The position numbers and the translations under genes were made by a program. From NCBI GenBank assembly GCA_905181725.1, contig CAJIYX010000052.1, forward strand, positions 12,139 to 76,138: DNA of 64,000 nucleotides, written 5' to 3'. How positions within the stretch are numbered: position 1 is the stretch's first letter; every line of letters begins with the position of its first letter. The DNA is from Alphaproteobacteria bacterium UBA830 (lineage in GTDB: Bacteria; Pseudomonadota; Alphaproteobacteria; MPNO01; UBA830). The notes beneath the pieces were generated by a model. It saw only the letters and a list, made by a program, of their open reading frames with translations, had not been told where the DNA came from and did not search any database. Positions 2,002 to 46,949 of this stretch are shown here, piece after piece.

Positions 2002-3696
2002 ATGACGGACCTCACGCAGAGTTATGCCAGCGGCACATCCGATGTGCCGTTGATCGGGGCGACCATCGGCGCGCAGTTCGATACGGCGGTGGCGCGCTGG
2101 CGCGCGCGAGATGCGCTGATTGTCCGCCAGCAGGATATCCGGTGGTGATGGCTGGACCTGAAGGAACGGGTCGATGCCTTTGCCGCCGGGCTGATGGATA
2201 TCGGGCTCGACCCCGGCAGCCGCATCGGCATCTGGGCGCCCAATCGCACCGAATGGACGATCACGCAGTTCGCGACTGCCAAGGCCGGGTTGATCCTGGT
2301 GAATATCAATCCCGCCTACCGGCTGGCAGAGCTGGAATACGCGCTGAACAAGGTCGGCTGCACAGCGCTGGTGACGGCGGCGGCCTTCAAGACTAGCGAT
2401 TATCTCGGCATGATCCGCGACCTGGCGCCGGAACTTGATACGGCAACGCCCGGTGAACTTCAAGCCGTGCGGCTGCCCGATCTGCGGCATGTTATTCAGG
2501 TCGGCGGCGGCGATGTGCCGGGCACCTGGGCCTTCGAAGATATTCTAGTGCACGGCAAGGCGGCGGGGCAGGCGGCAGTCGAGGCGCTCGCCCCCAGCCT
2601 GCAGTTCGACGATCCGATCAACATCCAGTTCACTAGCGGCACCACAGGCTCGCCCAAGGGGGCGACGCTTACCCATCACAATATTCTCAATAACGGCTTC
2701 TTTGTCGGCCGCGCCCAAGCACTGGGTGAGGACGACCGGATTTGTATCCCGGTGCCGCTTTATCACTGTTTCGGCATGGTGATGGGAAATCTGGCCTCGG
2801 TCACCCACGGGGCGGCGATGGTCTATCCCGGAGAAGGGTTTGACCCGCTGGCCACGCTTGAGGCGGTCGCCGCCGAGAAATGCACGGCGCTCTATGGCGT
2901 GCCGACTATGTTTATTGCGCAGTTGCAGCACCCGGATTTTGCCAATTTTGACCTGTCGAGCCTGCGCACCGGCATCATGGCGGGTTCACCCTGCCCGGTG
3001 GAGGTGATGAAACAGGTCATCGACAACATGCATATGGACGATGTCACGATTGCCTATGGCATGACCGAAACTAGCCCGGTCTCAACCCAAACCTCGGTGG
3101 ACGACCAGGTCGAGCGGCGGGTATCGACCATCGGGCGCATTCAGCCGCATCTCGAAGTAAAAATAATCGATGGCGATCGACGCATTGTCGCCCCGGGCGT
3201 GACGGGGGAGCTCTGCACCCGGGGCTATTCAGTGATGCGCGGCTACTGGGATGAAGCCGACCGCACGGCGGAGGCAATCGATGCCGGAAAATGGATGCAT
3301 ACCGGCGATCTCGCGACCATGGATGGGGCGGGGTATTTCAATATCGTCGGGCGGATCAAGGATATGGTCATCCGCGGCGGCGAGAACCTGTATCTGCGTG
3401 AAATCGAGGAATTTCTCTATCGTCATCCCAAGATCGCCGATGTCCAGATCTTCGGCATCCCGGATGAGCGCTATGGTGAGGAGCTCTGCGCCTGGATAAA
3501 ACTTGCCGAGGGCGAGGCCGCGTTGGCCGATGAAATCACCGGATTCTGTGAAGGCCAGGTCGCCCATCAGAAGGTGCCGCGCTATATCCGCTTCGTCGAC
3601 GAATTTCCCATGACGGTTACCGGAAAAATCCAGATATTCGTCATGCGTGACCAGATGATCGAAGAACTGGGGCTGAAAGCGGCTAAAACCGCCTGA
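2002..3696 (+). pseudogene. AMP-dependent synthetase/ligase (acyl-CoA synthetase) interrupted by in-frame TGA at 2146-2148
   Basis: After RBS GGGAGGAAG, ATG at 2002 gives MTDLTQSYASGTSDVPLIG...ALIVRQQDIRW, then TGA, then in the same frame [20 protein letters not shown]... continuing into the 500-aa ORF. The AMP-binding motif [18 protein letters not shown] is present. An ORF starting at 2194 would lack the conserved N-terminal ~65 residues. Confidence 0.7.
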
Positions 3697-3748
3697 AACC
3701 GAAACTCCGTCGTTGTAATCCCGGGCGTGGCGTGTCAAACCGCGCGCC

Positions 3749-5665
3749 ATGTTGCAGATTGAAAACCTTACCTACCGGATAGGTCCCCGGGTGCTGCTCG
3801 ACGAGGCGTCGGCATCGATTCCGGCTGGCCATTGCGTTGGGCTGGTTGGGCGCAACGGTACCGGCAAGACCACGCTGCTGCGGCTGATCACCAACGAGAT
3901 CGAAGCCGATGGCGGCAGCATCACGATCCCGCCGCGCTGGCGGATCGGCGTGACCAGCCAGGAAGCACCCGAAGGCCGGGGTTCGCTGGTCGACTCGGTG
4001 CTCGCCGCCGACACGGAGCTGACGGACCTTGAGACCGAGGCGGAGACTGCAACGGACCCTGAGCGGATCTCCTATATCTACGAACGCCTTGGCGAAAAAG
4101 AGGCCCATAGCGCGCCGTCCCGCGCTGCGCGCATTCTGGCGGGGCTTGGTTTCGATGAAGAAGCACAGCAACGTACCCTGGGTGAATTTTCCGGTGGCTG
4201 GCGGATGCGCGTCATGCTGGCATCGCTGCTGTTCACCAAACCCGATCTGCTGCTGCTCGATGAGCCGACCAACCATCTCGACCTGGAAGCAGCACTCTGG
4301 CTGGAGGATTACCTCCGCCGATATGACGGCACCATTCTGATCGTCAGCCATGACCGGGGACTGCTGAACCGGGTGTCCCGAGAGATTCTGCATCTCGAGA
4401 ATTCCACGCTGACGCTTTATCAGGGCGGCTACGATCAGTTCGAGGCGACCCGGCGTATGCGTCTCGAACAGAATGAACGCGCGCGTGAGAAACAGGACCT
4501 CCAGCGCGCGCACATTCAGAGTTTCGTCGACCGTTTTCGGTACAAGGCGAGCAAGGCGCGCCAGGCACAGTCGCGCCTCAAAATGCTCGAGCGGATGGAG
4601 CCGATCGCCGAGCACAGCGAAGGCGGTCGAGTAACCTTCAATTTCCCCGATCCGGTGCCGCAATTGTCGCCGCCGCTGTTCAGCGTGCTGAACGCGACCG
4701 TCGGTTATGACGACAAGGCTGTATTGAGCAACCTCTCGATCCGCCTTGATGAAGACGACCGGGTCGCGCTGCTTGGTGCGAACGGCAACGGCAAATCGAC
4801 GCTGATGCGCCTGCTGGCGGGCCGGCTCAAACAGATGTCGGGCACGTTGACCACCGCGCCAAAGCTTCGCGTCGGCTATTTCGCGCAGCACCAGACCGAA
4901 GAACTGGATATGAACGCGACGCCGGTGATCGAGCTTGGCCGGCGTCTGCCCGAGGACAAGGACGTGCAGCTGCGCAGCCAGCTTGGCCGCTTCGGGTTCA
5001 GCCAGCAGCGCGCGGATACCAAGATCTCCAACCTGTCCGGCGGCGAAAAGGCGCGTCTGCTGTTTGCGCTGATGACCTGTGACAAACCCCATATTCTGCT
5101 GCTGGATGAGCCGACCAACCATCTCGACGTGGATTCGCGCCAGGCGCTGATCCAGGCAATCAACAGCTTTGCCGGTGCGGTGGTGATCGTCAGCCATGAC
5201 CCGCATGTGATCGAGCTGACGGCGGATCGGTTCTGGCTTGTGGCCGATGGCAGCGTCGTCCCGTTTGACGGGGACATGGACGCCTATCGTTCCCTGTTGC
5301 TGGCGGGTGTCAAGAAAACCCGGAAATCGGCGACTGCCAAGATCGAGGAAATTATCCCGGCGGCGCCGCCACCGGCGCCTGTCGACAAGCGCGAACAGCG
5401 TAAAAAGGCTGCCGAGCAACGTGAGGCACTTGCCCCGCTGCGCAAGCAGGTTCAGCGTATGGAAAAGAACATCGCAAAATTTCAGACCGAAAAGGCCGAA
5501 ATCGAAGCGAAGATGGCCGACCCCGATCTGTATGACGGGGACAGCGCGAAACTGGTCGATCTGCAGAAGGACCTCGGCTGGGTTGCGGGCCAGATTGCAG
5601 AGACCGAGGAAGTCTGGCTCGGCCTTCAGCGGGAGCTGGAAGAAGCCTCCGCCGCTGCCGGATAA
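3749..5665 (+). CDS. ABC-F family ATPase (tandem ABC cassettes, coiled-coil C-terminus; Uup/YheS-like)
   Basis: 638 aa with two Walker A/B cassettes, signature LSGGEKARL, and a charged coiled-coil tail. Confidence 0.9.
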   Translation: MLQIENLTYRIGPRVLLDEASASIPAGHCVGLVGRNGTGKTTLLRLITNEIEADGGSITIPPRWRIGVTSQEAPEGRGSLVDSVLAADTELTDLETEAETATDPERISYIYERLGEKEAHSAPSRAARILAGLGFDEEAQQRTLGEFSGGWRMRVMLASLLFTKPDLLLLDEPTNHLDLEAALWLEDYLRRYDGTILIVSHDRGLLNRVSREILHLENSTLTLYQGGYDQFEATRRMRLEQNERAREKQDLQRAHIQSFVDRFRYKASKARQAQSRLKMLERMEPIAEHSEGGRVTFNFPDPVPQLSPPLFSVLNATVGYDDKAVLSNLSIRLDEDDRVALLGANGNGKSTLMRLLAGRLKQMSGTLTTAPKLRVGYFAQHQTEELDMNATPVIELGRRLPEDKDVQLRSQLGRFGFSQQRADTKISNLSGGEKARLLFALMTCDKPHILLLDEPTNHLDVDSRQALIQAINSFAGAVVIVSHDPHVIELTADRFWLVADGSVVPFDGDMDAYRSLLLAGVKKTRKSATAKIEEIIPAAPPPAPVDKREQRKKAAEQREALAPLRKQVQRMEKNIAKFQTEKAEIEAKMADPDLYDGDSAKLVDLQKDLGWVAGQIAETEEVWLGLQRELEEASAAAG

Positions 5666-5761
5666 CCCGGAGAATATCTGGCAGATGGCGGCCCATTCGC
5701 AGGGCGCACGGATTCATGCTAGTCAAATCTGGAACACCATAATCCGAGTGGGAATAACCAG

Positions 5762-6394: not shown

Positions 6395-6434
6395 TCACCG
6401 GGCTGACAACAAAAAATAAGAAGGATACAAAAAT

Positions 6435-7349: not shown

Positions 7350-7373
7350 GTGAGATACCCCCAGACCCGGCGT

Positions 7374-8477: not shown

Positions 8478-9650
8478 TCAGCGAAAGCACTTTTCCGGAC
8501 CCGCGCGCAGTATTTCGGATGTAGGCGATACGTTCTGCCGTGCGTGGATGACTGGAAAGCATGCCCAGGATGCTTTGCCGTTCTGTTTTTTCTCAGACTT
8601 TTTGCTGATCTTGTCAAAGAAACGCAGCAACCCGCTACCGTCGATATTTGCAGCATTCAGGCGTTTAATTGCGAAGGTGTCGGCGGCGCGTTCCGCTTTG
8701 TGCGAATAGCTGCTGTTGAGCGCCCATTCAGCTATACCGGTGACCAGAATGCCGTCGGCAAAATCACCGATCATCGCGCTGATCAATAGTGAAACCGCCG
8801 TCGTCCTGTATATCGCTTGTGTCGGGTGCTGATGAAACACATGTCCGATCTCATGGCTGACAACCCCGGCGATTTCTTCAGGCGAACCTGCGGCCTTGAT
8901 CAGACCCGATGTGACAACAACGTATCCCCCCGGCAGAGCGAATGCGTTCACCAGCTTTGCGTCGACAACTACCATGTTGAGCCAGCGCGGGAGCAACCAC
9001 GACGCGTTTGCGGAGAGCGACAGACTCGTTCCACCGAAACGTGCGTTCGCGAAAAAGTACTTCAGCGTTGAGACGCGTAGCCATGGGTTGGCGAGGAGAA
9101 GCATGACAAGGCTCAACGCAGTGTAAGCGAACGAGATCACAGCGTAACGCACTGCCGACCCGTCGAGATCAAAGCGGACACCGCGCCAGATTGTAAGGGT
9201 CGGTCTGTAGCGCCGCATACGGTAGATTGCGATGTGAATCAGGAATGCGATGATTGTGTAATAGATAACCTGGATGATGATTGGCAGCGGGCCTTCCATG
9301 CCCACCATCAGGAACTGAAGCAGCGAATAGACGGCGCCGAACGGTACCAGTATGACGATGGCGATCAGAAAGCCGACGAAAAGTTCTCCGCCGGTGCCAA
9401 GATATTCCAACGGGTCGTCCAGCAGTTTCGTGTGTTGCTAGACATACTTGCGAACCCGGGTTTTTGCCCAGAACCGGTATATCCCCAGGGTGACGATCGT
9501 CAGAAGAAAATTACGTGCGAGCAGCCAGAACAACCGCTTGCGGGGGCCGTCGAAATCCACCGACCGTCTTTGTCCCAGATCGGAAGCAGTATGTGTTGTA
9601 TCCAGAGTCACCGATTGCGGCGCCGTTAAGGCGTTCTCATTCTCTGTCAT
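8478..9650 (-). pseudogene. DUF898 (YjgN-like) membrane domain fused to M48 family metallopeptidase, interrupted by in-frame TAG at 9438-9440
   Basis: N-terminal piece ...FWLLARNFLLTIVTLGIYRFWAKTRVRKYV matches the YjgN first repeat. TAG follows, then the same frame continues QHTKLLDDPLEYLGTGGELF... (second DUF898 repeat), then the M48 motif NAFALPGGYVVVTSGL...HEIGHVFHQH. The TAG aligns with a Gln position in YjgN-like proteins. Confidence 0.55.
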
Positions 9651-13147: not shown

Positions 13148-13636
13148 CTATTTCAGGTGGTTCGCTTCGACGTCGCGGAGCAGCCCCTGGGCAGCGGCCT
13201 CGATCATGTCGAATACCCGCGCGAAGCCGTCGCCCGCCCCGTAATAGGGATCCGGCACGTCCGTAATGCCGGTTTCGGGCGCGTAATCCATCAACAGGCG
13301 CAGACGGTCGAGATGGGCGGTGGGACAGCTGGCACGCAGGCTGTGAAGATGGCTTGAATCCATCGCGACGATCAGGTCGAAATCGCGAAAATCGTCTCCG
13401 CGCACCGAGCGCGCCTGCTGGCCGCTGATATCGATGCCGCGGGATAAAGCGGTTTTCTGGGATCGCCCGTCCGGCGCTTCGCCCGCGTGCCAGGAGCCCG
13501 TCCCGGCCGAATCTACGCTGATGCGGTCATCCAGTTTTTGCGATTGGACCAGATGCAGAAAAACGCCTTCGGCGGTGGGGGACCGGCAGATATTCCCGGT
13601 GCAGACGAACAGGATCCGAATCTGGTTGGGCAACAC
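13148..13636 (-). CDS. low-molecular-weight protein-tyrosine phosphatase / arsenate reductase family
   Basis: VLPNQIRILFVCTGNICRSPTAEGV... carries the CX5R(S) P-loop. GTG start at 13636 with GAGG upstream. The 495-aa track ORF is a spurious upstream extension overlapping the divergent UDG gene. Confidence 0.8.
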   Translation of the reverse strand: MLPNQIRILFVCTGNICRSPTAEGVFLHLVQSQKLDDRISVDSAGTGSWHAGEAPDGRSQKTALSRGIDISGQQARSVRGDDFRDFDLIVAMDSSHLHSLRASCPTAHLDRLRLLMDYAPETGITDVPDPYYGAGDGFARVFDMIEAAAQGLLRDVEANHLK

Positions 13637-13676
13637 GCGATAGCCTCGATTGGTTGATAGGGCGTATACTACACGT

Positions 13677-13714
13677 TTCCAGCCCCGAAAGTTCCAGCCC
13701 CGAAAGTTCCAGCC
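13677..13714. repeat. 15-bp tandem direct repeat (ccagccccgaaagtt x2.4) in a divergent intergenic region
   Basis: ttccagccccgaaagttccagccccgaaagttccagcc lies between the divergently transcribed LMW-PTP and UDG genes. Confidence 0.85.
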
Positions 13715-13726
13715 GGCCGGCTTGCG

Positions 13727-14314
13727 ATGACAGATACGATCGAAACGATTTTTCGCGATATCCGCGCCTGTACCCATTGCGCGGCGGATTTGCCCATGGG
13801 GCCGCGGCCTGTGGTGCGGGGCACGGCATCGGCGCGCGTGTGTATCATCGGTCAGGCGCCGGGCGTGCGGGTCCACCGCAGCGGGGTTCCGTGGGATGAC
13901 CCCAGCGGCAAACGCCTGCGTGGCTGGCTTGAGGTCGATGACGAGACTTTTTATGACGAAGACCGGTTCGCGATTATTCCGGTTGGATTTTGTTATCCGG
14001 GGACGATGGCAAACGGCGGTGATTATCCGCCGCGCAAGGAATGCGCTCCGCTCTGGCATGCGCCCGTGCTCAATGCGCTGAAAAACGTTGATCTGACCCT
14101 GCTGGTGGGCAGCTACGCCCAGGCCTATTACCTCGGGAAAAATCGCAAAAAGACGATGACCGAAACGGTGAGGTCGTGGCGCGACTACGGCCCCGATGTT
14201 CTGGTGACGCCGCATCCAAGCTGGCGGACAACGGGATGGCAGAAAAAGAACCCGTGGTTCGATGAAGAAATTCTGCCTGAGCTGCGCCGCAAGGTGAAAG
14301 CGCTGATCGCGTGA
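13727..14314 (+). CDS. uracil-DNA glycosylase superfamily protein (family 4/5-like)
   Basis: 195 aa, motif VCIIGQAPG and C-terminal HPS motif (TPHPSWR). Confidence 0.8.
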   Translation: MTDTIETIFRDIRACTHCAADLPMGPRPVVRGTASARVCIIGQAPGVRVHRSGVPWDDPSGKRLRGWLEVDDETFYDEDRFAIIPVGFCYPGTMANGGDYPPRKECAPLWHAPVLNALKNVDLTLLVGSYAQAYYLGKNRKKTMTETVRSWRDYGPDVLVTPHPSWRTTGWQKKNPWFDEEILPELRRKVKALIA

Positions 14315-15231
14315 AGCTACCCGCTGCCTATACCGCCCTGCCGCCCGCCAACCGCGCCGTAATCCTGATGGTGATGTCGGCGATATCCTATGCCCTGACC
14401 TATGCCACGATCCGGGAACTGACCGAGTCGTTCTCGGTGTATCAGCTCGTGCTCTTCCGGACCGGCATCGGGACGGCAGTGATGCTGCCCTGGGTTTTCC
14501 GGTCCGGGATTCGCGTCTTGCGGACATCGCGCTGGAAGCTCTATGGCGTGCGCGCGTTGGCGGTGTACACAGGTAATCTCTGCTGGTTCTACGCCCTCGC
14601 CGAAATGGCCCTTGCAGACGCGACGGCGCTATCATTCCTGATGCCCGTGTTTGCTGCCCTGATATTGGCCTTCTGGATGCGCGAGCAACTCAACGGCGCA
14701 CGACTGGTGGCGCTGTTTCTCGGCCTGGCCGGCGCGTTCGTGGTTATCCGCCCGGGCTTTACCGAGGTCGGGCTTGCAACGCTTTCCATGCTGTATGCGA
14801 CCATCGTTTATGGGGGTGCAATGGCGGTGACCCGCGTGCTGGCCAAGACTGAGGATTCGAACGCCGTTGTTTTTTACATGTTCGCGCTCAACCTACCGCT
14901 GGCATTCGGCCCCGGCGTATATCACTGGACGACCCCATCGCCATCGCTTTGGCTGCTGATCGTGGTTTTCGCGATACTCAGCCTGTATTCGCAGATATTC
15001 ATGACGCGGTCTCTGGCGCTTGCCGAAGCCGCAGTGGTTATGCCGAGTTTCTATCTTCAGCTGCCGATTGCGGCGTTGTTCGGGTTCTTTCTGTTCGGAC
15101 AGGTGCCGGATATCTGGTTGATTCCTGGTGCGATATTAATAATTGGCGGAAGCTACTATTCGGTCTGGAGCGAAAGCAGGCGGCGTCGTCTTGCCGCAGA
15201 AGCGGCCGTGGCGCAGGAAGGTGGCGCATGA
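14311..15231 (+). CDS. EamA/DMT family transporter
   Basis: 306 aa, 10-TM profile with duplicated EamA domains. Confidence 0.8.
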   Translation: MKLPAAYTALPPANRAVILMVMSAISYALTYATIRELTESFSVYQLVLFRTGIGTAVMLPWVFRSGIRVLRTSRWKLYGVRALAVYTGNLCWFYALAEMALADATALSFLMPVFAALILAFWMREQLNGARLVALFLGLAGAFVVIRPGFTEVGLATLSMLYATIVYGGAMAVTRVLAKTEDSNAVVFYMFALNLPLAFGPGVYHWTTPSPSLWLLIVVFAILSLYSQIFMTRSLALAEAAVVMPSFYLQLPIAALFGFFLFGQVPDIWLIPGAILIIGGSYYSVWSESRRRRLAAEAAVAQEGGA

Positions 15232-19883: not shown

Positions 19884-19895
19884 GCGACCCGTTTC

Positions 19896-20780: not shown

Positions 20781-20781
20781 G

Positions 20782-33364: not shown

Positions 33365-33380
33365 GTGCTTCGGCCCGGGT

Positions 33381-35482: not shown

Positions 35483-35944
35483 ATGGAATGGAAACAACTG
35501 ACGCCTGAAGAGGCAGCGCAGCAGAAATATTACGGTCTAGGCGGCTGGTTGCTTTTCTTCTATGTGCTTGCCGTCATCGCTTTCGTCGGCTCCTTCGCAA
35601 ACCTGATGAACCACGAAGCGATGAAGCTCGTCTAAGGCGACAGCTATGTTGTGATGCTGGCCTTTGGCGTATTGGGCGCGCTTCTGATCCTGCCGTTTAT
35701 CATCATGGCGTCGCAGAAGAATCCAATGATGCCAAGCGCGACGATTTGGGCCTACAGCTTACAACTTGTCCTGCTCGCGATCAGCGCTTTTGTCGCAGGC
35801 CCGACCATCGTGCTGCCCCAGCTCATTGCTGGTGTCATCTACGTGCTGCTGTTTTGCTGGTTTTTGAAGCGGTCGAAACGGGTGAATGTCACCTATCTGC
35901 ACCGTGTGCGCGCAGAAGCCGCGGATGCCTCGGCGAAAGCCTGA
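35483..35944 (+). pseudogene. DUF2569-like small membrane protein, possibly split by in-frame TAA at 35630-35632 (alternatively two small ORFs)
   Basis: MEWKQLTPEEAAQQKYYGLGGWLLFFYVLAVIAFVGSFANLMNHEAMKLV, TAA, then GDSYVVMLAFGVLGALLILPFII... in the same frame. Confidence 0.35.
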
Positions 35945-36032: not shown

Positions 36033-37253
36033 ATGGCCGGACCACGACCCGGAGAGGTCAACAAGATCGTGCTCGCCTATTCGGGCGGGCTGGATACGTC
36101 TGTCATCCTCAAATGGCTGCAGGAAACCTATGATTGTGAGGTGGTGACATTCACCGCCGATCTCGGTCAGGGAGAAGAGGTCGAGCCGGCGCGGGCCAAA
36201 GCCGAAGCCGCCGGGGTGAAGGAAATCTTCATCGACGACCTGCGCGAGGAATTCGTCCGAGATTTCGTCTTTCCGGTGTTCCGCGCCAATGCCCTGTATG
36301 AAGGCGTTTACCTGCTCGGCACCTCGATCGCCCGGCCGCTGATTTCCAAGCGCCAGATCGAAATCGCCCGCCAGGTTGGTGCCGATGCCGTCAGCCACGG
36401 GGCAACCGGCAAGGGCAATGACCAGATCCGGTTCGAGCTTGGCTATTACGCGCTGGAGCCCGATATCAAGGTGATCGCGCCGTGGCGTGAATGGGATCTT
36501 GATTCCCGCACCAAACTGATGGAATACGCCCGGGAGCACCAGATCCCGATCGCGCGCGACAAGATCGACGAGCCGCCTTATTCGACCGACGCCAACCTAC
36601 TGCACATTTCCTATGAAGGAAAAGCGTTGGAAGACCCGTGGGTCGAGGCGGACGAGGCGATGTATACGCGTTCTGTCTCGCCCGAGATGGCGCCCGATAC
36701 GCCGACCTATGTCGAGATTGATTTCGATCGGGGTGACGCCGTGGCCGTCGACGGTCAGGAAATGTCACCCGCAACGCTGCTGACCAAGCTGAACGAGCTT
36801 GGTGGCGCCAACGGCATCGGCCGGATCGACATCGTCGAGAACCGCTATGTCGGCATGAAGTCCCGCGGCGTGTACGAGACGCCGGGTGGCACGATCCTGA
36901 TCGCGGCCCATCGCGGCATCGAATCCCTCACCCTCGACCGGGGGGCTGCGCATCTGAAGGACGAGCTCATGCCGCGCTACGCGGAGTTGGTCTATAACGG
37001 TTTCTGGTTCGCGCCCGAGCGCGAGATGCTCCAGGCCGCCGTCGATGAGAGCCAGAAATACGTCAACGGTACTGTCCGTCTGAAACTGTTCAAGGGGTCG
37101 GTCACCGTGGTTGGGCGCAAATCACCGGTCAGTCTGTATTCCGAACAGCACGTCACCTTCGAGGCGGATACCGTTTATGACCAGCGCGACGCTGAAGGAT
37201 TCATCAAGCTGAACGCCCTGCGTCTTCGCCTGATGAACGCCCGCAAGGGATGA
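36033..37253 (+). CDS. argG: argininosuccinate synthase
   Basis: 406 aa, [11 protein letters not shown]-loop. Unmistakable ArgG. Confidence 0.95.
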
Positions 37254-38137
37254 CGGTGGGGGGCTCTGCCCCACCGTCCCAGTTTCTCCGCAGCGCTTTC
37301 TGGGCGATTCTGGCAGCTGTCAGTTTCGCCTTCATGATGACAAGCGTGCGCTATATGGACGGCAAGTTTGATGCTTTCCAGATTGTGCTGGTTCGTGCGC
37401 TGGTCGGGATTCTGCTGGTGGGCCCGCTGGTCTCCAGATCCGGCATCGGCGCGCTCAGGACAAACCGGTTACCGATGCATTTCGTGCGCACGCTGTTCGC
37501 GCTGTTCGCCATGGCGACCCTGTATTATGCGCTCGCCTATATTCCGGTGGCGCAGGCGATCGCGCTGACGTTCCTCATTCCCCTGTTTACGACGATCGCC
37601 GCAGGCCTGGTGCTGCGGGAATCCGTTGGTATTCATCGCTGGGGCGCGACCCTGGTCGGGTTTGCCGGGGCCATGGTGATCATCCGGCCGGGCGTGATCG
37701 AAATCGAATTGCCCGTGATGCTCGTGGTCCTGTCATCCGCGCTGTATGCCGGGGCATGGTCCAGCGTCAAAATCTTGACCCGCACAGATTCTCCCGCCGT
37801 TACCGTGTTCTGGCTGAACGTGCTGATGGTGCCGCTGACGGCGATCCCGTCAGCGTTTCTGTGGGTAACGCCGGACTGGTCTGATGCCCTCCCATTGATG
37901 GCAATGGCGCTGTCGGGCTGGTCCGCCCATTTCTGTCAGGCGCGTGCGTTCGAACATTCCGACGCCAGTGCAGTGATGCCGTTCGATTTTTTGCGCTTGC
38001 CGCTGGGCGCCCTGTTCGGCTACGTATTGCTGGACGAATTCATCGATGTGTGGACCTGGACCGGCGCCGTCATCATCTTTGTCGCCGGTTATTACATCAC
38101 CCGGCGTGAAGCGCTGCGGAGTGCGAAGCCCTTATAG
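37250..38137 (+). CDS. EamA/DMT family transporter
   Basis: 295 aa. Confidence 0.8.
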
Positions 38138-38327
38138 CGTCGGCAGAATGGGGAGAGCCTATTCGCGGGTTCTGATCTGCCTAGACCGGGAAAAGGTTCA
38201 TCCCGAAGATGTTTTCGTGCACATACAGCAAGGCGAGGTAAAGCACCGTGGCGAGAACGACCCGCCACCAGCCGACATCGCGCATCACCAGTGACCGACG
38301 GTCTTGGAGTATCGCCTTGAACGGTGT

Positions 38328-38874
38328 TCAGCAGGTGCCGTCCTCGAAGGCCCGCCAGGCCTCATCAGCATTGGCGCGCCGGAGGGCGTCGATATGGACC
38401 ATGCCGAATGTCGAGAGCAACCAGAAACCGCCGAAAAACAGGATGGCGTCGATGTCGCCGCCGACAAACAGATGCGTGTCGGCCCAAAGTGCGAAGGCGG
38501 CCAGCATCGGATGGCGGACGATTGCGTAGATGCCTTTGCCGGGCGCTACCTCATGTGCAGCGCATCCATGCCGATCAGTTTCGGGTTCGGGTCGTGACGC
38601 TGCACAGAAAAAAGAAAATCGCGAAATACATCACAATCAGAATGACGTGCGGTCCGAACAGCCCGACATCGCAGACCCGCTGATACGAGGCTGCGTTATA
38701 GGCGCCGATCATCCAGACGAGCGCCGCGATCATCAGGACCGAATAAATCGCCCGGAAAGGTCCTTCGCCGATCACACCGGCAATGGAACTGCGGATCGCT
38801 CCCGATGACAGGATAAAATGTCCACCGGTAAAGGCGAGCGCAGAGAGCAGTAGGGGCAGGAAAGCAGCGCACAT
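38328..38874 (-). pseudogene. NnrU family membrane protein with frameshift in an A6/T6 homopolymer (~38605-38610)
   Basis: N-part MCAAFLPLLLSALAFTGGHFILSS... ends at 38575. An adjacent frame continues ...HEVAPGKGIYAIVRHPMLAAFALWADTHLFVGG... (NnrU C-terminal motifs) to TGA at 38328. Deleting one T of the T6 run restores a single ORF. Confidence 0.5.
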
Positions 38875-39827: not shown

Positions 39828-39969
39828 TCGCCGTGCTATCTCCGGTCTTTCCCGTCGTCAGTATATTGTGGCGTCGGGCTCGACCGGCCCGACTATGAAG
39901 CCCGCGGGATACCCACGCGAACAAACGGATCTCGCCCGGTCGGCTGAAGATAGGCGCCAAAGGCCGCGT

Positions 39970-40248: not shown

Positions 40249-40446
40249 GGCGGATTCCGTGGTGTTTAAGGCTTCAGGCAGGCCCGAAGCGGTCGCCGGA
40301 GCCTAGCGATACGGCGATTTGGACGCAAGCGGAGACCGCGTCCGCAAATCGCTTCGAAACCCTTTCAGATAGCTTGACAGAGAGGGGTCCCGAAACCATG
40401 ATCCGGCCTGCTCGACCCCCGCGGTTTATCGCCCGCGGTCGACACA

Positions 40447-40485
40447 GTGGGGCCGTAGATCAGCTGGGAGAGCGCAACGTTCGCA
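40447..40485 (+). other. partial (5'-half) tRNA-Ala-like pseudo-copy
   Basis: GGGGCCGTAGATCAGCTGGGAGAGCGCAACGTTCGCAAC matches acceptor/D-arm/anticodon-loop of the downstream tRNA-Ala, then diverges into AT-rich sequence with palindrome CAGAATTCTG. Confidence 0.6.
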
Positions 40486-40634
40486 ACACAGAATTCTGCG
40501 AATAAACTAAATGTTTCCAGTAGGTTATAGGTGACAAAAACACCGTGTGAATGATATGTGTCTTTCACACATTATTTTCTTGGTGAATTAGGTTGAGGTC
40601 GGAGCTATAAAGTCTTATTAAATTTCAAGTATTT

Positions 40635-40710
40635 GGGGGTGTAGCTCAGTTGGGAGAGCGATACGTTCGCAACGTATAGGTCAGCGGTTCGATTCCGCTC
40701 ATCTCCACCA
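40635..40710 (+). tRNA. tRNA-Ala (anticodon CGC)
   Basis: 76 nt cloverleaf: acceptor GGGGGTG/CATCTCC with G3:U70, D-arm GCTC-AGTTGGGA-GAGC, anticodon loop TTCGCAA, T-arm AGCGG-TTCGATT-CCGCT, encoded CCA. Confidence 0.85.
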
Positions 40711-40895
40711 CTTTTTGTCGTCCGAACACCCTGTGAAACTCATATATTTTAGTTTCACAGGGTGTTTCATACCTCTTTTAATATCCTCTGATATTATCAG
40801 TCAAAACGTTCACACCATTCACATGAGACTGAAACCCCATCGATTCGGTGGGGTTTTGTCATGTCCGACACTCTGAGGTCACATGGATGACCTCC

Positions 40896-41129
40896 CTGTT
40901 TGACGTACCCGTTAAGTGAGCAAAGGTCGGTGAGTTTGAGACAAACCTTCGCAAAGAGAGACAGATGGAAGGAATACAGAAGGCGAAGGAAAAGGGTGTT
41001 TATAAAGGACGCAAACCCTCCGTGAATGTGGAGCAGGTCAAGGAACTGCGTGATAGTTGAATGGGTGAGTCAGCAATAGCGCAGGAGATGGGAATAGGCA
41101 GAGCGAGTGTCTATCGGACACTTGGTTAG
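40896..41129 (+). pseudogene. serine recombinase (resolvase/invertase) C-terminal remnant with two in-frame TGA
   Basis: FDVPVK, TGA, then AKVGEFETNLRKERQMEGIQKAKEKGVYKGRKPSVNVEQVKELRDS, TGA, then the HTH MGESAIAQEMGIGRASVYRTLG. No N-terminal catalytic domain. Low-GC context. Confidence 0.55.
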
Positions 41130-41337
41130 GTTCTACTGAGCACCCTTTGTATTTCTTACGGACACATTCACGAGCGAGTTTCTGTGCGGCAGAGAGGTCG
41201 GCAAGTGGTGTCCATTCACGCAGAGCAGTCGCGTAGTCACTACCTTGAGCAGCAGTTAGACCCTTTTGGTAATCAGCAGAAAATACAGAGTTCTCCACCA
41301 AGACGGTGAAGAGTAGGACAGGAAAGATGAGTAATCA
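41038..41337 (-). pseudogene. Sel1-repeat secreted protein fragment (in-frame TGA in the signal peptide, truncated)
   Basis: MN, TGA, then LLIFPVLLFTVLVENSVFSADYQKGLTAAQGSDYATALREWTPLAD... Sel1 motif, then divergence. Confidence 0.35.
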
Positions 41338-41694
41338 GTTCATCTGGGGATGATTGGACGGATGTTCTGGGATGGGCAAGGTGGAATGGGGCGTGGGTGG
41401 TTCTGGGAACCCAGCGCATCGGTCCATCAGGCAAAGGGACGCAAACCCTCTGAGGGTACGCACCCCCTGCTGACCGTCCAGTTACAGGTCGTAAAACGTT
41501 ATTGGATATCGAGTGGCGCTACTTAATTCCCAAGTCCCAGCGAGTTTTGAAACTGTTGCCCGCCTGCCAAGCGCCAAGAGCATCATTGTCTTGGCATGGG
41601 TGAGGGCAAGGAAGAAAGCAGATATCGGTGATCTGCGCCATAGCATCTCGTTTGAAATCGTCGCTAAAATTACCTTTACCCATGACGGCCTCGC

Positions 41695-42090
41695 TTATTG
41701 CCTAACAATAAATTTGTCAGAGAGTAATTTTCGCTTGTCTACGCTGACTTCAACCGACCAACTCCCCTTCAGAGCCTTTACGCTTGCCCATGTTCTCCAA
41801 TGCATTGGACTCTCAACTGGCTGTTTAATACAGGAATATTGAACTTCATTGCGGTCAAAGCAGAAACGGACGTAATGCACAGGCGTAGTGCAACTTAGCT
41901 TAATAAAAGTGAATATGCGTTTGTCGTTCTGCGTAAAGACGGTACGCAAATCTATTGGTACTCTATCTTTAACGGTTCGAGAAATTTGCCAGTTGGTAAC
42001 CAAGCAATCGTTAGCCATGGCTTCTTCGCTTATCAACAAGGTGCCGAGGACTAATCCCACAGCAACTTTACTTAGAAATTTCCAACGCAA
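41695..42090 (-). CDS. DUF2914-like secreted protein (low-GC, probably horizontally acquired)
   Basis: Signal peptide MRWKFLSKVAVGLVLGTLLISEEAMA, then a pattern resembling DUF2914 (...VDRVPIDL...F.F...H.W...W.VEV.D). Confidence 0.4.
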   Translation of the reverse strand: MRWKFLSKVAVGLVLGTLLISEEAMANDCLVTNWQISRTVKDRVPIDLRTVFTQNDKRIFTFIKLSCTTPVHYVRFCFDRNEVQYSCIKQPVESPMHWRTWASVKALKGSWSVEVSVDKRKLLSDKFIVRQ

Positions 42091-42470
42091 TTAATATCGT
42101 CCCCACAAATGAAAGAGTGCCTTGATTTTTTGATGGCCTCCTCCGGAGGCCTGAATTTAAAAATCTATCGACATGCTCGGAGAATTTTTGCATCACAGAA
42201 AGCGGATGTCTAGCCTTGTCTAACGTCAGCATCGGCTTGTCGTCCTGTGGAAGACCTTTTCCGTTAGCGTACATCTCACCCAGATTGGATTGGGCAGCGG
42301 CATACCCCTGTTCGGCAAGGGGTGTCCATTTACGCAGAACGGTTGCGGGGTCACCATCCTCGTATGCAGTAACACCCTTGTGGTAATCAGCACTCCACGA
42401 CACCCCAGCACTTCCAAGAAGTACGGCGATCGTCAGGCAGATGGTGCCGGTCAGTTTTCTCAGGCGGGAA
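42068..42470 (-). pseudogene. Sel1-repeat secreted protein fragment (no ATG; one repeat then truncated)
   Basis: ...LRKLTGTICLTIAVLLGSAGVSWSADYHKGVTAYEDGDPATVLRKWTPLAEQGYAAAQSNLGEMYANGKGLPQDD, then non-Sel1 sequence. Paralogous to 41038-41337. Confidence 0.35.
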
Positions 42471-42645
42471 CTCTGACAGAGTATGTCTGAATAGCCCCTA
42501 GATTAGTAGACGCCTTCGTCCCTAAATTTGATGCCAGGAGGTCATGATGGGCAAAGGTGATTTCAGCGACGATTTCAAGCGAGACGCTGTGGTGCAGATC
42601 GATGATCTGATAACGCTGCCAAGTAGGTTTTCCAACGAACTACCC

Positions 42646-43491
42646 TTACGATTGACCACCGCTGCAATTGATCACATCTCCGGTCACGAAGCTTGCGTCA
42701 TCCGATGCCAGAAAGGCGACGGCGGCGGCATGTTCGTCGGGCACCCCACGGCGGTGCAGCGATTGCTGAGAGCGAATGTCGGCAACCATTTCCTGGCGAA
42801 ATTCTTCGGCCTGTTCCTGTTCGAGGCCTTCGGCCATGACACCGGCACCAAGAAACTGCCGCGGCGTTATCCGGTCGGGAATGTCCGTGCCACCCGGCGA
42901 CAGCGTATTCACCCGAATACCATACCGCCCATATTCCATGGCCAGTACCTTGCCGAGCGCCAGAATGCCGCCTTTGCTCGACGCATAAGGTGCCCGATAA
43001 AGCCCGCGCACCGACTGCGAGCCTATATTTATGATCGAGCCTGCTTGCTGTTCCATCATGATCGGCAATACGGCCCGGCAACCCCAGAGGGTCGGCAGCA
43101 GGGAACGCTCGAGTTCCAGCTTTACCTCTTCTTCGGTATACAGATGAAAGGGCTTCATCCAGATCGTACCGCCAACATTGTTGACGAGCACGTCGATCTG
43201 GCCGAACGCCTTCATCGCCAGGTCCATCATCTCCTCGGCACCCGAAAATGTGCTCAGATCGACGAGCGCCTTGATGGCGCCAACACCGTGCTCAGTCAGT
43301 TCGTCGGTTGTCTGGGTGGCGCCTTCATCGACCCGGTCCGCGACGACAATCTTGCCGCCTTCCTGACCCAGCCGCCGGGCAATTGCCCGCCCAATGCCCT
43401 GCCCGGCGCCGGTGACGATACAGACCTTGTTCTTTAACCGGCGTGCACCGGCAGCTCTTGGATCGAGTTCATCAGCCAAATTCAGCTCCAT
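42646..43491 (-). CDS. SDR family oxidoreductase (cis-diol dehydrogenase BenD/CmtB-like)
   Basis: KVCIVTGAGQGIGRAIA, catalytic YASSKGG. Confidence 0.8.
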   Translation of the reverse strand: MELNLADELDPRAAGARRLKNKVCIVTGAGQGIGRAIARRLGQEGGKIVVADRVDEGATQTTDELTEHGVGAIKALVDLSTFSGAEEMMDLAMKAFGQIDVLVNNVGGTIWMKPFHLYTEEEVKLELERSLLPTLWGCRAVLPIMMEQQAGSIINIGSQSVRGLYRAPYASSKGGILALGKVLAMEYGRYGIRVNTLSPGGTDIPDRITPRQFLGAGVMAEGLEQEQAEEFRQEMVADIRSQQSLHRRGVPDEHAAAVAFLASDDASFVTGDVINCSGGQS

Positions 43492-43554
43492 TGGTAGCGC
43501 GCCGCTGAAACCCCAAGGATGAGCGGGGCTGAGCGATGCTGTTATCCGCCCAGA

Positions 43555-44922
43555 TCAGATCGATATATGGGCGACGCCCTTCCTGACCTTCATTGGGTCT
43601 CCCGGGGCCTCGTTGAAAGGTATCTCACGGGGCAGCTCGAACGAGGCGGAGCGTACCGCCTGCGAGGCTTCATCCAGGCCGGGCGGCGGTTTTCCCGTTT
43701 CCAGGTCGCGGGCGGCATCGTGCAACTGGTGTCGCGCCATGAAGATGGCCTTGTCGGTCATGACCAGGTTCTCTCCGGTGCGGTCCTGAACGGTGCCCAT
43801 GCTTTCCTGCAGGGATGCGTCCTGCATCGCGATGCCTTTGACACCACTGAATGATGTCCGTGCCTTCTGCGCTTCACGGTCCATCATATAGTCGTTGTCC
43901 CTGTTCATCACCGGTCGGAACGTCCCTGGAATCAGCTCGACATGAAGGCTGCCACCGTCGCGCATAACGCCGAGTTCCAGATCATTCAGCGGACGCGATG
44001 GGTGATACGAAAAGGTCCAGGCAAAGCAGTTCTCATCGTCGATCGGCACCCAGGCATGACCGTGCAGCGGGTTGTCACCATAAGGCGGCACGATCGTATA
44101 CCAGGGCATGATCCACGGTGTGACCCGCCAGTAGTAATTCTCGTTTCCGGCATTGCGCCGTACGCCGATGTTCAGACCACCCTGCGATTCGACGATTTCG
44201 AATTTTGGCGCCAGGTCGGCGAGGTGATAGTCAGATCCCTTTGATCCGTGGTGCAGGGGATCGCTCCGAAGCTCCCCGCTATGTAGGAAGGCGACGTGGC
44301 TCGAATCAATCCCGCCTTCCAGTGCCTGCAGATAATTGCATTCCTCGAGGCGTTTCGAATGGAAACGCTGGTTCGCGGGCACTGTGGCCCATTCGAATGC
44401 CGGCGGTGTCGGCTGTTCTTCGGGCGGGCCCATATAGGTCCAGATGATGCCACCCCGCTCGACACATGGATAGGATGTCAGCGCGATTTCCGCACAGAAA
44501 CGGCTCTCCGGGGGCTCTGACGGGATTTCCGTACACTGGCCGGCGACGTCGTATTTCCAGCCGTGGTAGGGACAACGGATGCCGCCCTCTTCATTGCGGC
44601 CGAACCACAACGAAATGCGGCGGTGGGCGCAGAACTCTTCGATCAGTCCCAGCTTGCCATCGCTGTCGCGAAAGGCCAGCAACTGTTCGGACAGCAATTT
44701 GACGCGGACAGGCGCGCAATCCTTCTCGGCCACCTCGTGGGAGAGCAGGAACGGTATCCAGTAACGGCGGAACAGGTTGCCGGTCGGGGTGCCGGGACCG
44801 GTTTCGGTAACCAGTTTGTTCCTGTCATGTGTCAGCACGTGTTTCTCATTCCCCCGCGCACCGCGCGGCTCATTTGCATCGCCTCCGGATCGTCGCCGGG
44901 TCGGCATATTATAGAGCGACAT
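43555..44922 (-). CDS. Rieske non-heme iron oxygenase alpha subunit (VanA/GbcA-like single-component terminal oxygenase)
   Basis: Rieske CAHRRISLWFGRNEEGGIRCPYHGWKYD plus C-terminal mononuclear-iron domain. No beta subunit or reductase nearby. Confidence 0.8.
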   Translation of the reverse strand: MSLYNMPTRRRSGGDANEPRGARGNEKHVLTHDRNKLVTETGPGTPTGNLFRRYWIPFLLSHEVAEKDCAPVRVKLLSEQLLAFRDSDGKLGLIEEFCAHRRISLWFGRNEEGGIRCPYHGWKYDVAGQCTEIPSEPPESRFCAEIALTSYPCVERGGIIWTYMGPPEEQPTPPAFEWATVPANQRFHSKRLEECNYLQALEGGIDSSHVAFLHSGELRSDPLHHGSKGSDYHLADLAPKFEIVESQGGLNIGVRRNAGNENYYWRVTPWIMPWYTIVPPYGDNPLHGHAWVPIDDENCFAWTFSYHPSRPLNDLELGVMRDGGSLHVELIPGTFRPVMNRDNDYMMDREAQKARTSFSGVKGIAMQDASLQESMGTVQDRTGENLVMTDKAIFMARHQLHDAARDLETGKPPPGLDEASQAVRSASFELPREIPFNEAPGDPMKVRKGVAHISI

Positions 44923-45169
44923 GACAAGGTCGGCTATTCTGATTAGCTGAAATGTTCGGCAGATTTCACTCGTGCAACACACGATGTCCGGCAGCCTCGG
45001 AAGTCAGCGCGGCACCAGCAATGAGATATCGCCCTGCTCTCACCATAGCGAAAAGTCGGAAAGAACCGCGCGGGCTCCTCGGTCGAGAGTAATTGTCGGG
45101 AGCGGGTTCCGCGTTATCTGAAATCGGGGACCGGATTCGTCTTAGCCTGATGTCACTGTGACGCCGCTA

Positions 45170-45632
45170 TTACGGGCTCTGCCAACTCGTGGGTATCGCT
45201 GCTATGACAATCGAGTAATCGGTTGCACTCGAACTCAATTCGGTTTCTCCGAACGCGGGCGGATTGAAACTCGCCATGGCATTTCGCAGGGCTTCGACAT
45301 TTTCTGCGGCAAGCGTGTAGCCGTTACCGTCGTCCAGATCGAGCCGGTTGGATGTCCCGCTATACCATTCATCAACGGTAACGCTGTCGGTCGTCCCTAT
45401 TACGGATACCTCCAGATCATTCCCGACCTGTCGGAACCAGAGTTGATCGTCGTCGATGGTCGACCCGAAAAGAACGAGGCCCATCAGCGCAAGATTGACG
45501 GCCCCGACGAGCAGTTCGAGTGTCTGGACGCCGTAAAATACGGTGCCGAAGTTTCCGCTATCTGCCAGATGTGCCAGGAATACGGCTGAGGGTACCAAGA
45601 CGATTAGTACGTTTCCGACGATCAGCGGCATG
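45170..45632 (-). CDS. hypothetical membrane-anchored protein
   Basis: MPLIVGNVLIVLVPSAVFLAHL... then a soluble domain. No family recognised. Confidence 0.35.
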
Positions 45633-45732
45633 CGTTTTTCTTGGCCGAAATCCGTGGGTCGGCCCAGCCTTTGCCGAGCGACATGCCTGTCGCTCCGATC
45701 ATGATCAGGCAAGAAATCAGGACAATTATCTA

Positions 45733-45867
45733 CTATAAAATGGCGTTTTCGACCGCAGCGATATCGGCGTGGCTGCCCAAGGTTTCCGATATGAGCGTGG
45801 ACAGCCAGAACGTCAGAATCGTCAGGAAAGCGATGATGCCGGCGATTGCATGAATACGGATCTTAAT
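45733..45867 (-). CDS. small hydrophobic peptide (45 aa) ending in tandem stops TAG-TAG
   Basis: MIKIRIHAIAGIIAFLTILTFWLSTLISETLGSHADIAAVENAIL, GGAAGG ~10 nt upstream. Confidence 0.3.
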   Translation of the reverse strand: MKIRIHAIAGIIAFLTILTFWLSTLISETLGSHADIAAVENAIL

Positions 45868-45871
45868 CATT

Positions 45872-46312
45872 TCATTTGCCTTCCATGGGGGAGGGGCGCG
45901 CGTCCAGATAGTCCCTACAGAGCGCGTCCAGCGCCTCGAGAAGCGTAAATGCTTCGCGCAACTGGGCGGGCGGTAGTCCGGCAAAGGCTTTGTTGGCCCA
46001 TTGCGCGTATACCTTGTCCGCCTGGTGGTAGGTTTTCTCACCCGCCAAGGTCAGGCGTATGAGCTTCGCACGTTTGTGGTGGGGGTTATCGTCAAAGATG
46101 ATGAGATCTGCGGTGTTGAGATCGTTCGCGACCCGCTGTACAGCCTGACGCGACAGTCCTAGATTTCGGGCGATCTGGGGGACGGTAACATCGCTCTCCG
46201 ACAGTACAATAGATCCCATGACCTGCCAGCGCGCACTTGTCAGATTGAATGGCTGAACCATGCGATCACCAAGTGCAATCAGGTGGCCGTGGAGCCGGAA
46301 CGTGGCGGACAT
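45872..46312 (-). CDS. MarR family transcriptional regulator
   Basis: wHTH ...SARWQVMGSIVLSESDVTVPQIARNLGLSRQAVQRVANDL.... Confidence 0.75.
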   Translation of the reverse strand: MSATFRLHGHLIALGDRMVQPFNLTSARWQVMGSIVLSESDVTVPQIARNLGLSRQAVQRVANDLNTADLIIFDDNPHHKRAKLIRLTLAGEKTYHQADKVYAQWANKAFAGLPPAQLREAFTLLEALDALCRDYLDARPSPMEGK

Positions 46313-46440
46313 CGTGTCGGTTGCGGCGGTGGCCTGGGGACTGAGTTCGGATGTTTTAATGAGGCCCTCTTCTGACAATTGATTGCGATAATGACAATAT
46401 ATTGTCGAATCAGATTTATTCAACTCTTCAAAATATTTTG

Positions 46441-46472
46441 GACAAAAAAGGGGCGGATCAAAGATCCGCCCC
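46441..46472 (-). terminator. rho-independent terminator-like hairpin downstream of the peroxiredoxin gene
   Basis: GGGGCGGATC-aaa-GATCCGCCCC perfect 10-bp stem followed on the minus strand by TTTTTTGTC. Confidence 0.7.
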
Positions 46473-46496
46473 AGAGTACTATATTGCCGATTTCCG

Positions 46497-46949
46497 CTAT
46501 TTCATGCCGTCCAGATCGGCGATGATTTCGGCGGGGTGATCCGCCGGTTTTACCGCGTCGTAGGATGCAACGACCTTGCCGTCGGGGCCGATCAGCACCG
46601 ACTTGCGGGGCGAACGGGGGCTGTCTGGCTCCGATACGCCAAAGGCGACTGATACCGCACCGTCCTCGTCGCTCACGAGGTCATAGGGAAAATAGAATTT
46701 TTCACGGAACGCACCATTATCGGCCGGGCTGTCATAGCTGACGCCGAGGATGGAAGCGTTACGGTCTTCAAAGTCCTGGATTCGATCACGGAACCCGTTG
46801 CCTTCGATCGTTCAGCCAGGTGTGTCGGCTTTTGGGTACCACCAGAGCAAGACGTAGCGGCCGGTGAAGTCGTCTTTCTTCACCGCAGCGCCGTCCTGGT
46901 TCGGGAGGCTGAAATCGGGCGCGTCAACGCCGGCGGCAATCAATGCCAT
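46497..46949 (-). CDS. Bcp-type 1-Cys peroxiredoxin with TGA at the peroxidatic Cys codon (46812-46814): selenoprotein candidate or nonsense pseudogene
   Basis: Not in the ORF track. GGAG RBS, ATG 46949. MALIAAGVDAPDFSLPNQDGAAVKKDDFTGRYVLLWWYPKADTPG, TGA, then TIEGNGFRDRIQDFEDRNASILGVSYDSPADNGAFREKFYFPYDLVSDEDGAVSVAFGV...IIADLDGMK, stop TAG. The TGA sits exactly where the Prx T-P-G-C-T motif has Cys. Confidence 0.6.

Follow-up and report, generated by a model that had tools for sequence, protein, structure and literature searches.

The 64-kb stretch of DNA analyzed here (contig CAJIYX010000052.1 of assembly GCA_905181725.1, positions 12,139 to 76,138; hereafter the window) comes from the uncultured marine alphaproteobacterium UBA830 and has a G+C content of ~59%. 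It most probably (at a rough probability of 0.88) carries eight real pseudogenes that are fixed in the sampled clade, together with an intact gene for a Bcp-type peroxiredoxin (Prx) whose in-frame TGA would specify selenocysteine (Sec). The eight disrupted loci are those of an acyl-CoA synthetase (ACS), a DUF898 membrane protein/M48 peptidase, an ArsR-family regulator, a YciI-like protein, an extracytoplasmic function (ECF) sigma factor, a DUF2569-family membrane protein, NnrU and a PAS-EAL signalling protein. An earlier reading of the window, made without database searches (the sequence-only reading), had found interrupted frames at all nine loci (less certainly at those of DUF2569, NnrU and the PAS-domain gene) and proposed either gene erosion under relaxed selection or base-calling and assembly errors. 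The proposed erosion is borne out at eight of the nine loci, the exception being Prx with its predicted Sec codon, while the error alternative is contradicted by the recurrence of the same lesions in independent assemblies.

Disrupted loci and their ancestral states

Every lesion listed in the sequence-only reading is visible on the six-frame translation, and all eight loci have a disrupted frame where the positional orthologs of relatives are intact. Together, the eight loci contain 8 nonsense mutations, 5 1-nt indels, 1 microsatellite expansion, 1 insertion and 3 larger deletions. The relatives used for comparison were of several kinds: syntenic relatives were found by scanning species-representative genomes with the neighbouring leucyl aminopeptidase (60–91% amino acid identity; the species of the window itself was not among the matches), and nearer sister lineages were obtained from protein searches and contig look-ups. 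Orthologs of NnrU and the DUF2569-family protein came from separate protein searches; the flanks of the Prx locus carry such orthologs within the same species only. As the sequence-only reading had asked, all eight nonsense codons, unlike the Prx TGA, were found to stand where relatives have sense codons. The sister lineages (92–97% nucleotide identity) have sense codons or intact frames at the lesion sites (TCA, CAG, CAA, GAG, CGA), and distant relatives (64–82% amino acid identity) have TGG at the DUF898 site and TAT at the DUF2569 site. The GC-to-AT flavour suggested earlier is present in six of the eight nonsense changes (four C>T, one G>A and one G>T), although this is weak evidence, given that stop codons are AT-rich regardless. 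When the frames were rejoined, one Pfam domain crossed the lesion in five cases, including the Prx TGA, with spans of 26–416 for AMP-binding, 1–106 for YCII, 8–227 for NnrU, 7–128 for AhpC-TSA and 18–138 for DUF2569, the last at 27.3 bits and barely over the cut-off. The three sigma factor stops are located in the linkers that separate Sigma70_r2, r4_2 and DUF6596.

The ACS pseudogene (2002–3696, plus strand) is interrupted by a TGA at 2146–2148. In L185, a strain of 97.3% identity, this codon is TCA (Ser), and the change was therefore TCA to TGA; the orthologs in L005 and L010 also have Ser at the stop site, and L006, L007 and L009 lack the gene. The ACS of L185 contains four 1-nt insertions of its own, and the gene appears to have been disrupted independently in the two strains. 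ACS resides between the amidohydrolase and ABC-F genes (1895–3748 in the window; 4134–5247 in L004), in a slot that is itself a variable hotspot and contains ACS in the window lineage, L005, L010 and L185, a 365-aa beta-lactamase-like serine hydrolase in its place in L004, and nothing in L006, L007 and L009.

The DUF898/M48 remnant (8478–9650, minus strand) combines a deletion junction at 8960–9034 with a TAG at 9438–9440, where the ancestral codon was TGG (Trp). The TAG is real, as the sequence-only reading had it, but the frame is not one conserved gene: in L009, DUF898 and M48 are two adjacent, separate genes of ~416 aa and ~380 aa, and the frame in the window is a chimera left by a ~1.2-kb deletion over their junction. 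The possibility that the pieces on either side of a lesion are normally separate genes, raised in the earlier reading, applies in part to this locus, yet the TAG interrupts the DUF898 portion itself, at a codon that is TGG in L009. The locus has been cleanly deleted in L004–L007. It should be noted that the sole intact comparator is the distant L009, and that the lesions at this locus could be older than the others.

The ArsR, YciI-like and sigma factor pseudogenes lie side by side on the plus strand. The ArsR-family regulator (16175–16511) has a +1 frameshift caused by an extra C in the CCC at 16393–16395, which confirms the reported frameshift and corrects its position from ~16375. The YciI-like gene (16556–16879) has the reported TAG at 16619–16621 (ancestral CAG) and, in addition, a 1-nt deletion after 16864. 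The ECF sigma factor gene (16883–18202; Sigma70_r2, r4_2 and DUF6596) has three stops, TAG at 17159 (ancestral CAG), TAA at 17183 (ancestral CAA) and TAG at 17426 (ancestral GAG), and a repeat expansion. In L186 and L187 (~93–94% nucleotide identity) and L188 (~85%), an ArsR-AHSA1-(DUF899)-YciI-sigma cassette is found between the same EamA and Zincin_1 genes. ArsR is intact (114–124 aa) in L006, L187 and L188; YciI is intact (112 aa), with CAG at the stop site, in L186–L188; and the intact sigma factor orthologs are 419 aa long and 82–92% identical, with CAG, CAA and GAG at the three sites in L186–L188. The AHSA1 gene that follows ArsR in these relatives is deleted in the window, and the ArsR-YciI-sigma cassette is absent from L004, L005 and L007–L010. 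DUF899 of the cassette is split (161 + 58 aa) in L186 (251–961) and L187 (2478–3188); pseudogenes of this cassette therefore occur beyond the species of the window.

The repeat in the sigma factor gene is a pentanucleotide (CAGAG/GCAGA) present in 14 copies at 18042–18111, a 60-nt expansion compared to the sister lineages; intact orthologs have about two imperfect copies. From strain to strain, the repeat varies in length by −25, −20 and +10 nt. A 5-nt repeat within a reading frame and strain-to-strain length changes that are not multiples of three are also found in phase-variable contingency loci. The sigma factor gene differs from such loci in that it already contains three nonsense codons, because of which the repeat cannot switch its expression; the repeat behaves like a neutral microsatellite within dead DNA.

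The DUF2569-family gene (35483–35944, plus strand) has a TAA at 35633–35635, not at 35630 as first reported, where relatives have Tyr (TAT in L189); its intact orthologs of 153 aa (about 94–95% and 82% amino acid identity) occupy the same slot between RlmN and ArgG. The NnrU gene (38181–38874, minus strand) is also disrupted as proposed, but by other lesions than the proposed frameshift, as the T6/A6 run at ~38607 is unchanged. Compared to the intact 231-aa NnrU in the same FolD-EamA slot of L191 (92% nucleotide identity), the window has two 1-nt deletions, GG>G between 38589 and 38588 and CC>C between 38556 and 38555, and the nonsense change CGA>TGA at 38328–38330.

The eighth locus is that of a 574-aa PAS-EAL signalling gene, which is intact in the 95% relatives L099 and L100 and is followed there by PAS-GAF-GGDEF and DUF2336 genes. 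The window retains an N-terminal PAS remnant (56624–56995, plus strand; seen at 56714–56995 on translation), in which a 1-nt deletion at 56667 segregates among the strains. A 1.9-kb insertion (56890–58802), which contains a phage-integrase fragment and a TauD gene and is not found in L099 or L100, separates it from the middle part of the gene (58803–59787, plus strand; 89% nucleotide identity to 6039–6804 of L099). A stretch of about 3.3 kb has been deleted, and with it the EAL domain as well as the PAS-GAF-GGDEF and DUF2336 genes that follow.

ACS, the M48 locus and the ArsR-YciI-sigma cassette are gone from several related species in which the flanking synteny is retained. The housekeeping genes of the window, such as those for ArgG, FolD, RlmN, Def, Fmt, TruA, DapD/E, ArgB, YidC and ABC-F, are intact, in agreement with the sequence-only reading. 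For annotation, these results mean that the eight loci should be labelled as pseudogenes.

Replication of the lesions in independent assemblies

Contigs of the same species (L001–L003, L084–L098 and L101–L104) were found via identical neighbouring proteins in several ENA assemblies, three JGI metagenomes and the NCBI assembly GCA_054189545.1; they come from different samples and independent assemblies and are 98.2–99.99% identical to the window. Each lesion recurs in 1–5 independent assemblies per site. The lesion codon is identical in every covering contig for the ACS TGA at 2146 (3/3), the YciI TAG at 16619 (3/3), the three sigma factor stops (4–5/4–5), the DUF2569 stop (4/4) and the DUF898/M48 stop (CTA at 9438; 1/1, in L001, which is 99.95% identical). 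The gene-caller fragments on the same-species contigs match as well (48+500, 310+70, 62/92/79/172, 50+96 and 59+99 aa); for instance, the split of ACS into 48 aa and 500 aa is present in L001–L003.

These observations bear on the proposal that errors of base calling, polishing or assembly gave rise to the stops and frameshifts. The source is indeed a metagenome-assembled genome (MAG), and some related contigs (L087, L095, L185) contain Ns as well as additional 1-nt indels, which may be erroneous. The same lesions are, however, present in assemblies of different samples and pipelines (ENA, JGI and NCBI), they are mostly substitutions rather than homopolymer indels, and errors could not produce the neutral pattern of polymorphism found at these loci (see below). 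The recurrence of identical codons and fragments in independent assemblies is beyond what random or pipeline-specific error could produce, and we regard the error explanation as largely refuted and its remaining chance as very slight. N runs partly explain additional splits in the NCBI MAG GCA_054189545.1, which were not scored as lesions. Comparison of independent metagenome assemblies can thus tell real lesions from errors without reads.

Three points weigh against the fixation of eight real pseudogenes. The replication was judged on assembled contigs rather than on read-level data; "fixed" here means common to all sampled contigs, which number at most 5 per site; and the DUF898/M48 lesion is replicated by a single other assembly that is 99.95% identical to the window. 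In addition, the lesions of ArsR, YciI, sigma factor and NnrU were checked in ≥99.2% strains only.

Age of the lesions and selection on the disrupted genes

Judged from these alignments, the lesions at six of the eight loci are younger than the split from the sister lineages of 92–97% nucleotide identity (94% amino acid identity for DUF2569), and those at all eight loci are older than the diversification of the sampled clade of ≥98% identity and are therefore common to every sampled strain of that clade.

Within the species, the single nucleotide polymorphisms (SNPs) in the pseudogene pieces comprise 10 synonymous and 41 non-synonymous changes and are spread over the three codon positions (16/20/15), while those in intact genes comprise 369 synonymous and 194 non-synonymous changes with codon positions of 112/86/365 (Fisher p = 1.8e-10; same-species contigs pooled). 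Purifying selection has been lost at the broken genes, in which the SNPs look neutral, whereas the core genes, with 65% of their SNPs at third positions, are under normal purifying selection. The counts per gene are small, with 2 synonymous and 10 non-synonymous SNPs in the sigma factor gene and 5 and 13, respectively, in the middle part of the PAS-EAL gene, and no SNPs within the species fall in ACS, M48 or DUF2569. The relaxed constraint on ACS rests on the comparison of the window with L185, which differ in ACS by 23 non-synonymous and 15 synonymous changes and in the adjacent ABC-F gene by 3 and 44, respectively. On the branch since the 93% relative, ArsR, YciI and the sigma factor together accumulated 31 synonymous and 23 non-synonymous changes, compared to 66 and 17 in the neighbouring genes (p = 0.007), and this intermediate ratio fits inactivation partway along the branch.

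Inactivation is also seen segregating in genes that are intact in the window. Independent nonsense alleles are found in other strains in adh_short (22662–23492; 22884 CAA>TAA in L091 and L092, and 23239 TCG>TAG in L095) and in MarR (45872–46378; 46047 TTG>TAG in L097, L105 and L108), which are likely the next genes to go. Their SNPs (11 synonymous and 20 non-synonymous in adh_short; 4 and 16 in MarR) also seem to follow a relaxed pattern. Strain-specific frameshifts were seen in IalB (31612–32112; a 13-nt deletion at 31856 in L087) and in the gene for a 192-aa protein (53147–53725; a 1-nt deletion at 53555 in L103), either of which may be real or an assembly error.

The same polymorphism data bear on whether full-length proteins are still made from these genes, with a suppressor tRNA, codon reassignment or programmed readthrough carrying translation past the in-frame stops. 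One TGA, that of Prx, seems truly recoded, and with a single tRNA gene (Ala) in the 64-kb window, suppressors could be encoded elsewhere. Set against this are the stops themselves: 52 intact genes terminate in TGA (27), TAG (13) or TAA (12), and the ancestral residues (Ser, Trp, Gln, Gln, Gln, Glu, Tyr and Arg) follow no single decoding rule. Most of these genes also contain frameshifts or deletions, their SNPs (10 synonymous and 41 non-synonymous) look neutral, and, in contrast to the Prx TGA, no stop is conserved in relatives. We therefore consider readthrough at the eight loci highly improbable. The earlier statement that codon reassignment is excluded holds genome-wide, but it does not extend to site-specific recoding, as the following section indicates.

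A peroxiredoxin with a predicted selenocysteine

The Prx gene (46497–46949, minus strand; 150 codons) contains a UGA at 46812–46814, which the sequence-only reading had counted among the lesions. The rejoined protein matches Pfam PF00578 AhpC-TSA (E = 8.9e-30, residues 7–128), and its best matches in the PDB are Bcp peroxiredoxins. The UGA occupies the position of the peroxidatic Cys, in the motif TPG-U-T; residue 46 aligns with the C in ...YPKDNTPGCTTEG... of PDB 5enu_A (TPGCT). When metagenomes were scanned with the rejoined protein, all of the 80 homologous loci found, with 60–97% amino acid identity, had TGA at this position. The dN/dS is 0.05–0.19 over the 100 codons after the TGA and 0.01–0.19 over the 45 codons before it, and the within-species SNPs comprise 9 synonymous and 4 non-synonymous changes.

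A candidate bacterial selenocysteine insertion sequence (SECIS) hairpin (46770–46805, minus strand) starts 7 nt after the UGA (+7 to +42). Its 10-bp interrupted helix consists of a 4-bp lower stem (GAAG/CUUY) and an upper stem (GGGUUC/GAAUCC) and is capped by the apical loop CGUGAUM. The element emerged only when 62 sequences were compared. Pairing is retained in 99.5% of 620 cells and in 100% of those of the upper helix; there is one GC>AU double change, and several single changes are compatible with wobble pairing. Between +18 and +36, synonymous sites are frozen, and Gly, Phe, Arg, Asp and Ile are encoded by GGG (56/62), UUC (61/62), CGU (62/62), GAU (60/62) and AUC (61/62), respectively; for the conserved Thr, Pro and Gly just 5' of the UGA, all four synonymous codons are used.

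Because the TGA is conserved, occupies the position of the peroxidatic Cys and is followed by a hairpin and by sequence under purifying selection, we conclude that the UGA is probably decoded as Sec and that the gene is intact rather than a pseudogene. Several results weigh against this conclusion. Covariation in the hairpin is minimal, since the element barely varies, and in single-sequence folds of the 60–90 nt after the UGA the hairpin was not better than in shuffled sequences (z = +0.8). An Rfam scan of the window returned the tRNA-Ala only and no SECIS match, ARAGORN found no tRNA-Sec in the 10 kb on either side of Prx at 29 related loci, and selA, selB, selC and selD, which lie beyond the 64-kb window, were not observed.

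If the TGA were instead a nonsense mutation and Prx a ninth pseudogene, the lack of an outstanding hairpin in the single-sequence fold and the Sec machinery not being seen within the window would be expected, as would the behavior of the gene callers, which in every examined assembly cut the gene into pieces of 45 aa and 59 aa. A nonsense mutation is difficult to reconcile, however, with the same TGA in every one of the 80 homologous loci, even at 60% identity, with strong purifying selection after the codon and frozen synonymous sites over a pairing-competent hairpin, or with the location of the codon at the peroxidatic Cys of a known selenoprotein family, and we give this explanation very little credence. 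The TGA, although present as reported earlier, is accordingly not counted as a lesion.

The Prx family with the TxxU motif (pfam00578/COG1225) ranks with the most abundant selenoprotein families of marine metagenomes (PMC2398784, Table 2) and is included in the list of verified prokaryotic selenoproteins (PMC9312934). The Prx of the window shares with this family the AhpC-TSA domain, a (here predicted) Sec at the position of the peroxidatic Cys in a T-P-G-U motif, the marine source and a hairpin directly after the UGA. There is no essential difference in these features, and the Prx of the window, with its candidate hairpin (GGGUUC-CGUGAUM-GAAUCC), is one more member of this known selenoprotein family. 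Its split gene calls should be annotated as one selenoprotein. More generally, an in-frame TGA at a catalytic Cys calls for a test for Sec before it is scored as decay.

Two other candidates were rejected. The ACS TGA gave a fold z of −2.2 (91-nt window), but Sec at this codon was dismissed since relatives have Ser (TCA/TCT/TCG). A 59-aa open reading frame (ORF) at 47074–47253 (minus strand) was considered as a SelW-like selenoprotein; it is zinc-ribbon-like (CxxC...CxxC) and has no in-frame TGA. This ORF, just upstream of Prx, has its own terminator hairpin at about 47020–47050. In the distant relative L173, ARAGORN reported a "tRNA-Phe(gaa)" of 91 nt at 14382–14472, unusually long for tRNA-Phe, ~4 kb from the TGA-containing Prx gene.

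Density of pseudogenes and the question of genome reduction

The scenario that we favor for the disrupted loci is that eight accessory loci were inactivated by ordinary mutations, six of them after the sister split, and that the dead genes now drift neutrally while being deleted, as has already happened in related species; at Prx, the conservation of the UGA and its surroundings suggests that it would be read as Sec with the aid of the hairpin just downstream. The reality and fixation of the lesions, their ancestral states, the neutral drift and the deletion in relatives are observed, and for the cause we infer that the functions became dispensable or that selection was ineffective. The loci provide dated and polarized examples of the loss of accessory regulator and stress genes in an abundant uncultured marine bacterium.

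Dead genes account for about 9–10 of ~62 ancestral gene positions (~15%) and roughly 11% of the bases of the window. By comparison, pseudogenes make up 3–5% in marine roseobacters (bioRxiv 10.1101/2021.01.15.426902). The binomial probability of ≥9 of 61 at 4.7% is ~0.002, but this is an unfair test, as the window was chosen for the feature. The share also comes from one window, which may be unusually flexible, and genome-wide erosion is not thereby shown; this weighs against extending the share to the genome.

The real lesions could reflect ordinary turnover of a few flexible slots, a local sampling effect rather than genome-wide erosion, to which we assign a little less than an even chance. 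Every pseudogene lies in a slot that is variable among relatives: the ACS slot is beta-lactamase-like in L004 and empty in L006, L007 and L009, the presence of the M48 locus and of the sigma cassette varies from species to species, and the PAS-EAL gene adjoins an inserted island. Relatives also carry pseudogenes, such as the split DUF899 in L186 and L187 and the frameshifted ACS in L185, and the core genes are under normal purifying selection. Local turnover accounts less readily for a density (9–10 of ~62 positions) above the 3–5% of roseobacters and for the timing of the lesions, since those that can be dated against near sisters fall, DUF898/M48 excepted, on one short branch, and further null alleles segregate.

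The short branch (from the 92–97% sisters to the ≥98% clade) and the nulls segregating in adh_short, MarR, IalB and the 192-aa protein gene are also what a more speculative proposal rests on, namely that this free-living planktonic alphaproteobacterium is halfway through a reduction of its genome, brought about by a bottleneck or a genome-wide sweep (drift or hitch-hiking), with regulators shed first. These regulators could be the ECF sigma factor/YciI, ArsR and c-di-GMP signalling. In this specific form we consider the proposal rather unlikely, while local turnover and lineage-wide reduction as such carry comparable weight. If the density holds genome-wide, the organism would be a useful natural case for the debate on whether drift or streamlining underlies the reduction of bacterioplankton genomes.

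Reductive evolution with many nonsense and frameshift pseudogenes beside intact housekeeping genes is well known in recently host-restricted bacteria, such as Mycobacterium leprae and Sodalis. The window resembles these genomes in that regulators and sigma factors are lost and housekeeping genes are intact, but it differs from them in that the organism was recovered from many seawater metagenomes, its core genes are constrained, no bloom of insertion sequences (IS) is seen besides island remnants, and the lesions are in accessory slots only. The likeness to the pseudogenes of flexible bacterial genomes, which are short-lived, strain- or species-specific and subject to deletion bias, is found in lineage-specific lesions in genes that are intact or cleanly deleted in relatives, in neutral evolution after inactivation, and in the same gene being struck independently in different strains. 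What sets the window apart from such pseudogenes is a density above the 3–5% of roseobacters and the datable lesions on a single short branch of a planktonic lineage that has been widely sampled. Nothing found here is a new kind of system.

Other features of the window

A 495-aa ORF at 13148–14635 (minus strand) was rejected as spurious, as it overlaps LMWPc and UDG genes that are called in other assemblies.

An island at 40250–46450, in which the G+C content falls to 49%, adjoins the tRNA-Ala(CGC) gene (40635–40710). It contains two N-terminal fragments of IS3-type OrfA (41519–41683, minus strand; and from 42544, plus strand), Sel1-repeat-like fragments, and adh_short, Rieske/LigXa and MarR genes. 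The region measures ~4 kb in the related L113 and ~6 kb in the window.

The window also contains eight genes for transporters of the EamA family (DMT), in the stretches 14311–16106, 18996–22559, 33381–34247 and 37250–38137. Four of them are in tandem (18996–22559), and all are intact and syntenic in relatives.

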